64,000 nucleotides of DNA, taken from the sequence record NC_054925.1; one strand, 5' to 3'. The notes below the pieces were generated by a model. The model was given only the letters and a program-made list of their open reading frames with translations. It made no database searches and had not been told where the DNA came from. This stretch comes from Escherichia phage vB_EcoM_NBG2. This document shows positions 18,120-64,000 of the stretch, piece by piece. The translations under genes were made by a program, and so were the position numbers. Within the stretch, counting starts at the first letter, position 1. Every line of letters starts with the position of its first letter.

Positions 18120-18377
18120 TTATTTTAAAACTTCTGCGTAATCACATGTTACAAACTGTTTCTCTAGCTTAACGATCTTACGAAAATACCTTTTACACTG
18201 ACGAATCTGTCGCTTCGTAGGACGTACAGCAAACTTAATAAATTCAACTCGACCAAATGGAGGACTTTCTTCTGCTGGAATATCTAACACCAATTCCCAC
18301 GTATCTGAAATAAGTGCTTTGAATTGCGTATTTTTCCTGACGTTATACGGAGTAGGTTTAAATAAAACAATATGCAT
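18120..18377 (-). CDS. hypothetical protein
   Basis: Trimmed to M15 immediately after dmd stop; 85 aa. Confidence 0.45.
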   Translation of the reverse strand: MHIVLFKPTPYNVRKNTQFKALISDTWELVLDIPAEESPPFGRVEFIKFAVRPTKRQIRQCKRYFRKIVKLEKQFVTCDYAEVLK

Positions 18378-18378
18378 A

Positions 18379-18561
18379 TTATCCTCGGCAATCCACTTCA
18401 CACACTTTCTTGTCATCAATGAAAGCTTTAACTAATGCTTTATTAACTTCGGCATATTGAGTAGTAGCCCATTGAACGTCATCTTTCATCATTGTAGTTT
18501 CTTTAGTAAACATGCTTTCATTCTTAAACCACCCCATAAAAACTACCTTTACCAATTCCAT
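18379..18561 (-). CDS. dmd: Dmd-like small protein (anti-RnlA/LsoA antitoxin analog)
   Basis: 60 aa; position immediately downstream of gene 41 as in T4; GAGGAG SD. Confidence 0.55.
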   Translation of the reverse strand: MELVKVVFMGWFKNESMFTKETTMMKDDVQWATTQYAEVNKALVKAFIDDKKVCEVDCRG

Positions 18562-52336: not shown

Positions 52337-52858
52337 TTATCCTTTCATTGAAGGTGTAACAGTTGTTAAATACTTAATCATAGCTTCAGCTTCTGATTTT
52401 GATAATGAAATTTCTCCATTGTTTTGACGAATAGAAATAAAATCCGGATGACGGTCACCACCAGCTTTTAAAACACACATATAAGTATCAGTTTCATCTT
52501 CAATATTTGAAATGATTGAAGCAGTTCCACATGAATGTGGTTTTTGATAAATCAATACAGCTTTTCTTCCACCGTTTGACTGTTCATAAACTTTTAACAC
52601 ATCAAACAAATCACTTCTTTTATCAATAGCTAAGATGTTGTTTTCATCTTCAATGTTAAATCCTTCGGATACTTCATAAAGCGTTACCCATAAATCACCT
52701 ATATCGATAGTAGCATTTTCCTTTCCATGACTTTCAAGAGCATGACAAATTTTCTTGATTTCATCATAACTCATTTTAATAATATCATCTCCTTGAATAA
52801 GGAAGATGTCATTTTTAAATTCAACACGAATTAAACCGCTTCCACTTGAAATAAACAT
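52337..52858 (-). CDS. hypothetical protein, paralog of 52865-53431
   Basis: 173 aa; C-terminal SKSEAEAMIKYLTTVTPSM resembles TKDEAIALKTYLDSVIPTM of neighbour. Confidence 0.5.
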   Translation of the reverse strand: MFISSGSGLIRVEFKNDIFLIQGDDIIKMSYDEIKKICHALESHGKENATIDIGDLWVTLYEVSEGFNIEDENNILAIDKRSDLFDVLKVYEQSNGGRKAVLIYQKPHSCGTASIISNIEDETDTYMCVLKAGGDRHPDFISIRQNNGEISLSKSEAEAMIKYLTTVTPSMKG

Positions 52859-52864
52859 ATTTCC

Positions 52865-53431
52865 TCACTTTGAAATCATAGTTGGAATGACAGAATCAAG
52901 ATAAGTCTTTAGCGCAATAGCTTCGTCTTTTGTAAATGTAACAATATGTGCTCGAAAATCGTCAATTTGGCGAATAGTTAAGACATCTCCTTCTTCATAA
53001 CATTTTGATACATTTAAAACAGTTTCATCATTCTGATCGCACTGATCGCAAGCGTTAGTAATAATAGCATTGCAATTTTTGAGCCATTTTAAACTATGTT
53101 TTCTTTCATTAGAATAATAAAAATATTTAATCTTAGCTATAAAACTATCCCAATGGATAACTGATAAACACATTGACTCACTTTTAATATTAAATCCTGG
53201 GCATGAAGAATAAAAATGAATTTTGTGCTCATCATTGATGCTTACTATTTTATCAGTATAAGGATATTCAATTTGGATTAAATGAACGATTTCACTAGGC
53301 GTAAAATATAGCATATCGTCTTCTTGCGTCAAACGATACATGTTATTTACTTTTTCTATAGCCAATTCACCAAAAAGCGGACTAACTTCTAATACTAATC
53401 GTTTCATATTGATTCTCTTCGACTCACTCAC
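52865..53431 (-). CDS. hypothetical protein, paralog of 52337-52858
   Basis: 188 aa; shared C-terminal motif. Confidence 0.5.
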   Translation of the reverse strand: MSESKRINMKRLVLEVSPLFGELAIEKVNNMYRLTQEDDMLYFTPSEIVHLIQIEYPYTDKIVSINDEHKIHFYSSCPGFNIKSESMCLSVIHWDSFIAKIKYFYYSNERKHSLKWLKNCNAIITNACDQCDQNDETVLNVSKCYEEGDVLTIRQIDDFRAHIVTFTKDEAIALKTYLDSVIPTMISK

Positions 53432-53596: not shown

Positions 53597-53761
53597 CATT
53601 AAATGACGTTTTCAATAAAATTCTGAAGCTTTGTGTGAGCATCAACCATAATTTTCATTTCTTCCTTTGCGAAAGCTGTACCTCTTTCCCGAGCAGAATA
53701 CTCATAGTCAGAAACTGCATTAGCATATTCTTCAATTAGCTTCATTAAAAACATTTGCTTT

Positions 53762-53956
53762 TCAGTTTTCATTATTCCACCTAATCATTTCAAGATATTG
53801 AACTAACTTAGCTTTGGATTTATCCAAATCCTTTTTAGCTGCTTCTATACCGTCGTATGAATATCCTTCACAGTGCTCAACTGCCAATTGATATGAATCT
53901 ATTTCAATATCACGTGCTAATTTAATGATTTTTTCAAACTGTTCACGTGTTAGCAT
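53762..53956 (-). CDS. hypothetical protein
   Basis: 64 aa ORF. Confidence 0.4.
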   Translation of the reverse strand: MLTREQFEKIIKLARDIEIDSYQLAVEHCEGYSYDGIEAAKKDLDKSKAKLVQYLEMIRWNNEN

Positions 53957-53958
53957 AA

Positions 53959-54198
53959 TTAAACTCTCGTATTATGATCGATAATTTCATCAAGAAACAT
54001 ATCTAACGCTTCTAAAGCATTATCAACTTTAGCTTCAAATTTTTCAATACCTTTATTTGCAATGCCTGCCGAAAACCAAGCAAAGTCACTAAGTTCCTCA
54101 TCTGCTTTGCGAATTAAAGCTACCAATTCTTTAATTTTATCTGCTTGTTCAATTCTAGTCATTATTCCACCACATATGAAAGAGAGAATATTGCACAC
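53959..54198 (-). CDS. hypothetical protein
   Basis: 79 aa ORF. Confidence 0.4.
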
Positions 54199-61324: not shown

Positions 61325-62293
<969 letters not shown>

Positions 62294-62312
<19 letters not shown>

Positions 62313-62782
62313 TCAGTGATAAAGTTATTTAAATTTTGAGTATATTTCTTTTCATCAAAAATCTTTTGTTGTCTGCGTAAACGCCATGGCATTTCAATGA
62401 ACATACGCCATATTCCTGATAATACTGCTGCTGTAAAAATATTAACAAGTATAGTTAAAAGAACCCAATCTCCTATTCTGTCCATTGGATTTTTTATAAA
62501 AAAGTAAAATACGAACGATGATATAGGAAGACTAATGATATACCACAGAAGAACCTTCTTATCTGTGAACCAATCAGCATTCGTTAACTTAGCGCGACCG
62601 TTTTGAATACATACGAACTTATCATCTGTTACAGTAAATGGCTTAGCTGCTTGATATCCCATTCTAAACTCCCTAATTAATCGTTTCTTTGTATCTTCAG
62701 AACAACCATTCCAGTCAACTCTATCAACTGGAATGCCATCATCCCCATCATCTAAATCATACCAGCGAGTTTTTAAAATCAT
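62294..62782 (-). CDS. small membrane protein, paralog family (C-terminal CRK motif)
   Basis: 162 aa; TM helices; C-terminus FITECRKLK. Confidence 0.5.
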
Positions 62783-63141
62783 TTAATTTTCCTACAATCA
62801 CTCACAAACTCTTTCATTGACTCATTTTCAATATAAGACATGTAGCTATTATATTCCTTTAATTGTATTTTGTAATCCTTTTTTCTTTGCCAATTTATTT
62901 TAAAATTATCATAATGAAAATATAAAATGATACCAAAGAATGAAAACAATGAAATAATTTTAGTATAACAAAGCTCATTCCAAACTTCTGTTATATTTAC
63001 TGTGCCGTCGATGTTTAAAATAAGACAGTCAATTAACAATCCAAAAAGACTACCCGCAAGAGCTGCAGCCAACGCCACAGCAAAAATTAAAAATGACTCA
63101 GAAAACGAATATTTGACTTTATTTAGTTTTGGCTTTTGCAT
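62779..63141 (-). CDS. small membrane protein, paralog family
   Basis: 120 aa; C-terminus FVSDCRKIK. Confidence 0.5.
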   Translation of the reverse strand: MQKPKLNKVKYSFSESFLIFAVALAAALAGSLFGLLIDCLILNIDGTVNITEVWNELCYTKIISLFSFFGIILYFHYDNFKINWQRKKDYKIQLKEYNSYMSYIENESMKEFVSDCRKIK

Positions 63142-63536
63142 CGTGATTCCTTAACAAATTTCATAATTTCATTAAATTCATACTCAGCAAGTTTAAGCTG
63201 GTGTTCCTTTTTAATCTTTTTACACTGAGCTTTCCAATCGTGTACACGTTTACGATAATGTCTTCCTTGATACCAGTATCCTACCCAATTTACGGGTACT
63301 AATAAAAGTGGAACTACCAATGGAAGAATTAGCATTAACACAAGTATTTCGCCAGAATCAATATCAGTCATAACATCTAAAACACCTCCAATAATCAATA
63401 GAATTACAAATGATATAAGTATAACAGGACCTATTAATACATCAGTAGAAATTATCTGGTGCTTTGATTCATACTTCAAAGGTTTACTTGGAAGGTATAG
63501 TGATGGTTTTGACATATTCTCTACATTCCTTAACAA
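63123..63536 (-). CDS. small membrane protein, paralog family
   Basis: 137 aa; C-terminus FVKESRCKSQN. Confidence 0.5.
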   Translation of the reverse strand: MLRNVENMSKPSLYLPSKPLKYESKHQIISTDVLIGPVILISFVILLIIGGVLDVMTDIDSGEILVLMLILPLVVPLLLVPVNWVGYWYQGRHYRKRVHDWKAQCKKIKKEHQLKLAEYEFNEIMKFVKESRCKSQN

Positions 63537-63867
63537 ATTTTTCTAATAATAAATCGCTTTCAAAATTGGGATTTTCCACGAATTTATCAAAAAGATCATC
63601 AACAATAGTTAAGATATTCTTTTTACTAAGAATACGCTTATTTTCATGCTTCGTTTCAGAATCAACTATAAGAGTAAAGAAATATTTCTTGCCCTGAAAT
63701 TTTACAGTAGTATCAATATAGAATAAATTTGACTTTTGTAAATTACGTTTAAACCATGCGTCACTTAAACTATAAACACCGAGATAATCATAATCGTCGT
63801 TTAAATAACATACTGTCCATTCAGGAGAAATGAAATCAGTAAATTCAACATCAAAATCACGCGTCAA
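63484..63867 (-). CDS. hypothetical protein
   Basis: 127 aa; C-terminal KFVKECREYVK; start probably internal. Confidence 0.4.
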   Translation of the reverse strand: MTRDFDVEFTDFISPEWTVCYLNDDYDYLGVYSLSDAWFKRNLQKSNLFYIDTTVKFQGKKYFFTLIVDSETKHENKRILSKKNILTIVDDLFDKFVENPNFESDLLLEKFVKECREYVKTITIPSK

Positions 63868-64000
63868 TGAATGAATTGATTCAATACTGTTAATAAGTAT
63901 TCCAGGACGTATTAAAGACTTTTTACCTCTGGAAAATCTTCCAGAAAGACTTTCATCAGTTTCATATGAAGAACCCCAATAATAATTACGTCCTTCTGCC
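63867..64000 (-). CDS. partial ORF running off the window end (C-terminal part only)
   Basis: open minus-strand frame to the window edge; no track entry. Confidence 0.3.

Follow-up and report, generated by a model that had tools for sequence, protein, structure and literature searches.

Four neighbouring genes on the minus strand of Escherichia phage vB_EcoM_NBG2, situated at one end of a stretch of 64,000 nucleotides (nt) of its genome (NC_054925.1; this whole stretch is called the window below), encode proteins with diverged bodies and a common C-terminal tail that carries the motif F-[IV]-x-[ED]-C-R-[KE]. A match over at least 80% of the window was obtained in more than 490 Tequatrovirus (T4-like) genomes, nearly all of them at 90–99% identity; the window is a stretch of a Tequatrovirus genome, and the four open reading frames (ORFs) are the genes e.2, e.3, e.4 and e.5. 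Comparison with relatives in other T4-type genera indicates that the tail is conserved as a peptide, although the ribosome-binding site of the following gene lies within its codons. With regard to its role, the anatomy of the carriers makes it quite possible, if not quite probable, that the proteins use the tail as a common helix for docking or assembly on the cytoplasmic side of the inner membrane.

Gene models of the array

In the nearest relative and in T4, the minus-strand order is e (lysozyme), nudE, e.2, e.3, e.4, e.5 and e.6, and these genes were formerly named msp8 to msp3. The features of the window are the following:

62294..62782, minus strand: e.2 coding sequence, 162 amino acids (phrog_2203, E = 5e-77); N-terminal soluble part of ~77 amino acids, transmembrane (TM) helices at 62495-62551 and 62411-62467, basic cytoplasmic tail of 38 amino acids
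62303..62323, minus strand: tail motif FITECRK of e.2
62779..63141, minus strand: e.3 coding sequence, 120 amino acids (phrog_2330, E = 3e-58), C-terminus EFVSDCRKIK-stop; TM helices at 63013-63093 and 62917-62973, cytoplasmic tail of 45 amino acids
62788..62808, minus strand: tail motif FVSDCRK of e.3
63123..63515, minus strand: e.4 coding sequence, 130 amino acids, starting MSKPSLYL (phrog_2604, E = 4e-69), C-terminus KFVKESRCKSQN-stop; TM1 at 63372-63446 and TM2 at 63276-63356, the latter predicted to run on as one long cytoplasmic helix to the C-terminus
63135..63158, minus strand: deviant tail motif FVKESRCK of e.4
63484..64000, minus strand: e.5 coding sequence, 3' 172 codons only (phrog_2607, E = 3e-65), C-terminus KFVKECREYVKTITIPSK-stop
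63517..63537, minus strand: tail motif FVKECRE of e.5, with F, C and R invariant in eight genera
61857..62297, minus strand: nudE (Nudix hydrolase), with which the translationally coupled string of genes ends; context, no motif

A preliminary description of this DNA had reported a shared C-terminal motif in four small proteins, three of them membrane proteins. These three, e.2, e.3 and e.4, are indeed predicted membrane proteins, whereas the fourth, e.5, is a soluble protein of 202 amino acids without a predicted TM segment. The C-termini had been quoted exactly, except that e.5 runs on for seven residues past EYVK and thereby overlaps the start of e.4. Position 63867, given as the boundary of the fourth ORF, is only an internal TTG: the full length of 202 amino acids is seen in the nearest relative, and the start of e.5 lies ~92 nt past the end of the window. 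Because the window ends inside the gene, e.5 matches phrog_2607 at profile positions 78-203 only. Translation of e.4 begins at the ATG at 63515 rather than at the TTG at 63536.

Overlaps of 4, 4, 19 and 32 nt along the array join the genes into one translationally coupled string. The ATG of nudE (62295-62297) overlaps the stop codon of e.2 (ATGA), and the ATG of e.2 (62780-62782) does the same with e.3. The ATG of e.3 (63139-63141) lies inside the R-C codons of e.4 (overlap of 19 nt), and that of e.4 (63513-63515) inside the Y-V codons just after the e.5 motif (overlap of 32 nt). A scan of the array for sigma-70 promoters yielded 24 candidates against 18.5 expected from shuffled sequences, which is near chance. 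A perfect GC-rich palindromic stem-loop, AGGGGCCGAAGCCCCT, is located between e.6 and e.5 just outside the window (L001 6814-6829) and is annotated as a terminator, so that transcription of the genes from e.5 to nudE would have to start at promoters upstream of e.6, e.7 and e.8 and read through it.

Statistical support of the tail motif

The similarity of the tails was assessed on the last 20 residues of each protein, in which the highest-scoring ungapped 7-mer block was sought with the BLOSUM62 sum of pairs as the score. The best block, NFITECR / EFVSDCR / KFVKESR / KFVKECR, had a score of 143, and none of the shuffled sets (three kinds, 20,000 each; means of 32–55, maximum 121; z = 8.8–10.9) reached this value. 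Since the ends of many T4 genes likewise include the ribosome-binding site of the following gene, a control with real gene ends is important; when 20,000 quadruples were drawn at random from the actual C-termini of the same window, the scores averaged 34 and did not exceed 92. The motif reported for the four neighbouring ORFs is thus real, as its score lies far above shuffled controls (0/20,000) and also above that of real gene ends. When the 64 kb are translated in six frames, F[IVL]x[ED]CR is found three times, in each case at the end of one of these genes, and it has no occurrence in T4 coordinates 69000-168899. Among 338 six-frame ORFs of at least 60 amino acids, a count that excludes e.5 as it runs off the window, only e.2 and e.3 contain the strict pattern near the C-terminus, which leaves a background of 0 in ~335 other ORFs.

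Some weaker similarities were seen elsewhere in the window. Two adjacent minus-strand ORFs (52337-53431 and 53599-54198; 173 and 188 amino acids) have similar C-termini, EAEAMIKYLTTVTPSMKG and EAIALKTYLDSVIPTMISK, and three small ORFs beside them carry KLQNFIE, KLVQYLE and ALDMFLDE near their ends. With 80, this cluster has the second-highest score of all adjacent quadruples in the window. A minus-strand ORF of at least 66 amino acids ends with AFIDDKKVCEVDCRG-stop at ~18340-18393, a loose look-alike of the tail (D-C-R-G) that is probably due to chance.

Occurrence across T4-type genera

Sequence comparisons indicate that the motif is wider and better conserved than the window alone could show. 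In the generalised form F-[IV]-x-x-C-[RK], it was found 27 times in nine genera, within ~30 residues of the C-terminus; a fuller form reads hydrophobic-x-x-F-[IV]-x-x-C-[RK], in most cases with K and then the stop codon after it. The e.4 lineage departs from this, as it has S, I, V or M in place of Cys and conforms to a relaxed form only. Conservation is most evident in the e.5 orthologues from eight genera, which are 13–46% identical and have only M1, one Asn and the F, C and R of the motif as invariant residues. In most carriers the motif ends at most three residues from the C-terminus; in e.5 this distance is 8–18 residues, and in RB43 it is ~27.

The set of carriers differs between genera. 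RB69 has the motif on e.5 (FIMECRE), e.3 (FIKECRK-stop), e.4 (FVKEIRCK) and a fourth protein with two TM segments, ORF133c (FIKECRGK-stop). In Gaprivervirus and Dhakavirus, it is present on e.5-, e.3- and e.2-like proteins, while the e.4-like protein contains FIKEVRN, and the Klebsiella phage KP182 (Jiaodavirus) has five carriers. The position immediately after e.6 is taken by a motif gene in Tequatro-, Mosig-, Gapriver-, Jiaoda-, Moon-, Winkler- and Tulanevirus and in an Enterobacter phage, with Citrobacter (Moonvirus), Serratia (Winklervirus) and Aeromonas (Tulanevirus) among the hosts; in RB43, one small ORF lies between the two genes. The e.6 gene itself (L001 6835-7428) is far more conserved than its neighbours, with identities of ~88% to RB69-type phages, 61–65% to Klebsiella and Enterobacter phages and 51–53% to Aeromonas phages.

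In other genera, a second tandem family that is absent from the window directly follows the e.3-like gene. It consists of small acidic soluble proteins (phrog_899) that end with W-[VIQ]-[SP]-S-S-x-x-C and the stop codon, as in GAWVSSSEVC-stop, GGWVSSSSEC-stop and KIWYPSSC-stop. The loci of this family are L002 4995-5585 (RB69 ORF138c-136c), L021 2400-3650 (MN01, five copies), L023 4832-5391, L024 5066-5835 and L026 4711-6334.

Protein-level and RNA-level constraints

All Shine-Dalgarno sites of downstream genes in the window are located inside the motif, either as AGGAAA in the R-K codons (e.2 and e.3) or as AAGGAA in the K-E codons (e.4 and e.5). The site in the e.2 tail (62303-62308) serves nudE, that in the e.3 tail (62788-62793) serves e.2, that in the e.4 tail (63147-63152) serves e.3, and that in the e.5 tail (63526-63531) is likely the Shine-Dalgarno site of e.4. 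This double use of the motif codons had been missed in the preliminary description, as had the soluble nature of the 202-residue e.5 and the reach of the motif far beyond this phage. The junctions resemble ordinary T4 early translation-initiation regions, and the idea of a RegA-operator-like element was dropped.

The similarity of the tails could accordingly be a nucleotide-level by-product: each gene end would have to accommodate the Shine-Dalgarno site, the spacer and the start codon of the overlapping gene after it, gene conversion or unequal crossover would keep these ends alike, and the peptide would be without function. Several observations fit this explanation. In a comparison of 11 T4-like arrays, three of the four junctions show the lowest nucleotide diversity (0.015, 0–0.006 and 0.016–0.037), the e.4/e.3 junction (63135..63158) having the value of 0–0.006, while the diversity at the e.3/e.2 junction is ~0.06–0.08 and the TM regions are most variable with 0.2–0.27. 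The tails of e.5 and e.4 have a string of 16 identical nt in common, AAATTTGTTAAGGAAT, those of e.2 and e.3 both read TGY AGG AAA WTW AAA TGA, recombination does occur inside the motif (see below), and one KP182 tail has R-S (AGG AGC) instead of K-E and still spells a Shine-Dalgarno site. A constraint at the RNA level thus exists, and two positions of the motif probably owe their preference for K-E or R-K to it.

The remaining positions behave differently. In the 27 tails from nine genera, Cys is encoded by TGT or TGC, Phe by TTT or TTC and Arg by all six of its codons, so F, C and R are held through synonymous change. The Shine-Dalgarno site may lie in the x-E codons (AAGGAA, GAGGAA or AAGGAG), in the R-K codons (AGGAAA) or outside the motif altogether; in the MN01/L011 e.5-like gene, it is AAAGGGG and located downstream of the motif. 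A 102-residue protein of KP182 keeps LFIAKCRAK-stop even though the next gene starts 30 nt later without overlap. In the e.5 orthologues, the +2 and +3 positions vary freely around the invariant F, C and R, and real gene ends of the same genome with similar ribosome-binding sites never came near the observed score. Synonymous codon use at F, C and R, the shifting position of the Shine-Dalgarno site, the persistence of the motif without overlap and the free +2 and +3 positions together argue that selection on the tail acts at the protein level and that the motif is no artefact of ribosome-binding sites. We therefore consider an origin purely as a nucleotide by-product very unlikely. The statement that the motif sits on otherwise diverged bodies was also borne out.

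Topology of the carriers

For e.2, e.3 and e.4, the predicted topology bears out the two TM segments and cytoplasmic tails. Each of these proteins has two hydrophobic segments that are connected by a short loop with few Lys and Arg residues, and their C-terminal tails of 38–55 residues contain 10–14 Lys and Arg each. Basic tails together with loops poor in Lys and Arg place both ends in the cytoplasm by the positive-inside rule, and the same arrangement of two TM segments with N-terminus and C-terminus inside was predicted by hydropathy and positive-inside count for RB69 ORF133c and a 98-residue protein of KP182. No membrane segment was predicted for e.5.

An AlphaFold2 model of e.4 (21 sequences; predicted local distance difference test score, pLDDT, 74) contains helices at residues 24-48 (TM1) and 54-129, with a pLDDT of 79–86 over residues 81-120. 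According to this model, TM2 of e.4 extends into the cytoplasm by a further ~50 helical residues, and the motif forms the tip of this extension. When the tails are aligned on Phe, positions F-3, F, F+1 and F+4 (Cys) are hydrophobic and lie on one helical face. The hydrophobic moment at 100 degrees is 0.41–0.76, the mean hydrophobicity of the tail 11-mers ranges from -0.07 to -0.53, and the substitutes found at the Cys position are V, I, M or S. The module is predicted to be an amphipathic helix tip that forms a cytoplasmic extension of the second TM helix in the membrane carriers and closes the soluble domain in e.5.

Relatedness of the carriers and database annotation

Profile-profile alignment with hhalign gave significant similarity for e.3 and e.4 (35 columns, P = 1e-4) and for e.2 and e.3 (15 columns, P = 2e-4), in both cases in the tails only; the alignment of e.2 with e.4 was not significant. 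The N-termini of e.3 and e.4 both read M-[QS]-K-P-x-L, and weak PHROG cross-matches over hairpin and tail were obtained for e.3 to phrog_2604 (E = 0.0018), RB69 ORF133c to phrog_2203 (E = 8e-4) and the e.3-like protein of MN01 to phrog_2203 (E = 0.0016). The common architecture, the N-terminus of e.3 and e.4 and the recurrent weak cross-matches suggest that the membrane carriers are probably diverged tandem paralogues. With e.5 and the other soluble carriers, they have the tail alone in common.

Homologues up to 97% identical to e.4 of the window carry Pfam PF26873 (Phage_T4_Y06O), and PF26896 is found on e.2 homologues. The window proteins match, or are nearly identical to members of, these two families and PHROGs 2203, 2330, 2604 and 2607, but these families are uncharacterised and filed separately, with no record of the common tail or of the link between e.5 and the membrane proteins. 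Sequence searches of Pfam (in a set without the PF26873 model), NCBIfam and PDB with e.2 to e.6 and relatives returned noise only. Foldseek with the e.4 model found nothing in PDB, and its matches in BFVD were only uncharacterised proteins of T4-type phages. A hidden Markov model of hairpin plus tail had 12 matches among 1.84 billion representative sequences, all of them T-even relatives of e.2, e.3 and e.4 or fragments thereof; from a search of 5.8 billion proteins with tail-containing profiles, the best 120 of 208 matches were considered. Only six related loci were present in IMG/VR. We found no literature on these proteins by gene name, UniProt name or Pfam accession.

Public product names for these proteins include 'sulfurtransferase', 'DNA primase', 'portal vertex protein', 'host specificity protein' and 'phosphoserine phosphatase', and none of them is backed by a family match. 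The sulfurtransferase label, which NCBI applies to many e.3 and e.4 homologues, would imply a rhodanese, whose active-site loop reads CRKG. The likeness is limited to the tripeptide C-R-K: the proteins are helical hairpins with two TM segments and without a rhodanese domain in Pfam or NCBIfam, and after C-R their tails read K-L-K-stop, K-I-K-stop or E-Y-V instead of continuing like the rhodanese loop C-R-x-G-x-[RT]. The label looks like annotation noise.

Recombination and natural variation

The array is frequently rearranged, and some of the breakpoints lie in the tails. Yersinia phage ZN18 (L006 3120-3340) lacks e.2, and among the first 60 records listed, 41 are without e.2 and have e.3 joined directly to nudE (PP01, PST, UFV-AREG1, Ozark and others). 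In these phages the crossover is located inside the motif codons (GAT TG|C AGG AAA): e.3 has its own sequence up to GAT TG, then the tail of e.2, C AGG AAA TTA AAA TGA, which leads straight into nudE. The two tail repeats bound a precise in-frame gain or loss of the e.2 cassette. The e.5/e.4 and e.4/e.3 junctions resemble each other in the 16 identical nt and in similar downstream starts, as would be expected if unequal crossover had taken place between tails.

Short repeats at gene borders also flank insertions and deletions of accessory genes in the PeSL cassettes and hyperplastic regions of T4-type phages (PMC2839356, PMC4122927). The e.2 insertion or deletion is likewise bounded by two repeats, but PeSLs are intergenic promoter/stem-loop elements, whereas the repeats of the array are coding (tail codons plus ribosome-binding site) and the change is in frame.

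Other isolates contain a fusion of the N-terminal part of e.4 to the C-terminal part of e.2 with deletion of e.3, an e.5-e.4 fusion ORF, a frameshifted e.3, an internal e.3 deletion that leaves only the tail, or a split e.5. The sites of these rearrangements are P0143 (phage UFV05), L017 186-1160, L016 1129-1500, L008 2890-2995 and L006 1917-2532, and some of them may be sequencing errors. Programmed frameshifting as the origin of the e.5-e.4 fusion was rejected, as it occurs in a single record (L017) and is more likely a mutation or sequencing error. In the T4 reference (NC_000866 ~67470-67970; L010 1970-2470), e.2 is annotated with 102 amino acids, compared to 162 in intact relatives, because two frameshifts interrupt the gene: the first takes the TM2 part out of frame, and the second restores the initial frame for the tail.

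Possible function of the tail

A docking or assembly role at the cytoplasmic face of the inner membrane is suggested by the combination of an amphipathic helix tip, carriers of both membrane and soluble type, translational coupling of their genes, and a Cys position that takes only S or apolar substitutes. The shared partner proposed in the preliminary description thus fits the anatomy best, because the tip occurs on co-encoded membrane and soluble proteins. According to this model, soluble e.5 and a variable set of inner-membrane anchors would bind one partner, or bundle together, through the tail, with Cys on the buried hydrophobic face of the docking helix. The most economical candidate for the partner would be the highly conserved e.6, which precedes a motif gene in all nine genera examined. 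An assignment of e.6 as a PspA-like protein was rejected, as it had no Pfam match.

Several points weigh against such a docking helix. The link to e.6 consists of gene neighbourhood alone, and e.6 is more widespread than the carriers (1105 phage records compared to 642 for e.5 and 532 for e.2). The strict retention of a rare Cys exceeds the needs of simple helix packing. The long helix rests on a monomer model of moderate confidence (pLDDT 74), and a single-sequence AlphaFold2 model of the e.5 fragment had a pLDDT of 37.6 and was not used for fold searches. As only the tails align, paralogy of the carrier bodies is not proven. Members of the array are lost or broken in many isolates, which makes an obligate four-part complex unlikely. 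In a T4 CRISPRi-ART study, the guides against e.2 to e.6 that were considered here are scored "Not Fit", so that knockdown had no effect on fitness, and function and essentiality of these genes are listed as unknown (PMC11879866, supplement). The natural loss variants agree with this, and the array genes are accessory.

The conservation of Cys raises the question whether the tails engage in thiol chemistry, in which several tails come together and their Cys residues bind a metal between them (Zn, Fe or Cu) or become linked covalently, for instance by a reversible disulfide. Cys is a rare residue, and yet it is retained without exception in the e.5, e.3 and e.2 lineages of different genera, its position on the hydrophobic face would bring thiols into one layer if the helices were parallel, and the phrog_899 family beside the array in other genera also ends with Cys (W-V-S-S-x-x-C-stop). 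However, the tails are predicted to reside in the cytoplasm, a reducing compartment, so that the conserved disulfide considered in the preliminary description is unlikely. Each tail has a single conserved Cys, and no conserved His or Cys partner is located nearby, whereas zinc or other metal motifs have several ligands per chain, and there was no match to a metal-binding or redox family. In the e.4 lineage, Cys is moved or replaced by S, I, V or M, and the displaced Cys is absent from the e.4-like proteins of Gaprivervirus, Jiaodavirus, Moonvirus and the Enterobacter phage. A metal contact, also mentioned in the preliminary description, is conceivable, but a universal metal or redox site is doubtful, and thiol chemistry as the general function of the motif seems unlikely to us.

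Alternatively, the tail could be a membrane-targeting helix that lies on the inner leaflet, recruits e.5 and pins the ends of the proteins with two TM segments. The tails are amphipathic with a basic end, and soluble proteins encoded beside membrane proteins carry the motif. In this respect the e.5 tail resembles the C-terminal helices of MinD and FtsA, which are likewise short, amphipathic and basic and located on soluble proteins. In contrast to these, the phage tails are much less hydrophobic, with negative means over the 11-mers, no more than three or four apolar residues and, in many cases, a central acidic residue, and they contain the invariant Cys-Arg and also occur on integral membrane proteins, which need no targeting helix. 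Since the invariance of Cys and Arg would be left unexplained as well, we regard this function as improbable.

A C-terminal tag for a host protease or chaperone such as ClpXP or FtsH, which would limit the lifetime of these early proteins, has still less to recommend it. The closeness of the motif to the C-terminus in most carriers and the basic end would suit a tag, and the tail end may resemble basic C-terminal ClpX signals, but in e.5 and RB43 the motif is too far from the end, and a degron does not need an invariant Cys. Two further candidates were rejected: a cleavage site of the gp21 prohead protease (I/L-x-E), because variants with V and D exist and the carriers are early membrane proteins, and a CaaX-like lipidation box, because Cys may be as close as 1 or as far as ~27 residues from the end.

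The preliminary description had noted the position just beyond the lysozyme and nudE genes and had named lysis timing as a phenotype to check. We found no tie of the array to lysis: e has its own annotated late promoters, no array protein matched a holin, antiholin or spanin family in Pfam or PHROG, and T4 t, rIII and pseT.2/pseT.3 (spanins) are annotated elsewhere, t being ~90 kb away. Small accessory inner-membrane proteins of T4, namely Imm, RI, the RIII partner system, holin T and Ac, are small and non-essential and act at the host envelope. The array proteins are similarly small and non-essential but have no sequence or family match to them, and this tail is not known from any of them.

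Significance

T4 is the reference phage, and about half of its genes have no known role. It is conceivable, albeit unlikely at present, that the array belongs to an unrecognised membrane-associated assembly that is widespread in T4-type phages. Such an assembly would consist of a core of e.6 and e.5 and of exchangeable anchors with two TM segments that join it via their Cys-containing helix tips, possibly through metal or thiol links, and gain and loss of anchors might tune an envelope-directed function in host takeover or counter-defence. Irrespective of this, the public sulfurtransferase label on these proteins can be flagged as unsupported, and the tail DNA provides a clean case of three constraints acting at once, as it encodes a peptide motif, contains the ribosome-binding site of the next gene and serves as a recombination site. 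One short Cys-Arg helix tip next to e.6 ties together four T4 genes and their relatives in at least nine genera, so that four separate 'hypothetical proteins' become one testable unit.

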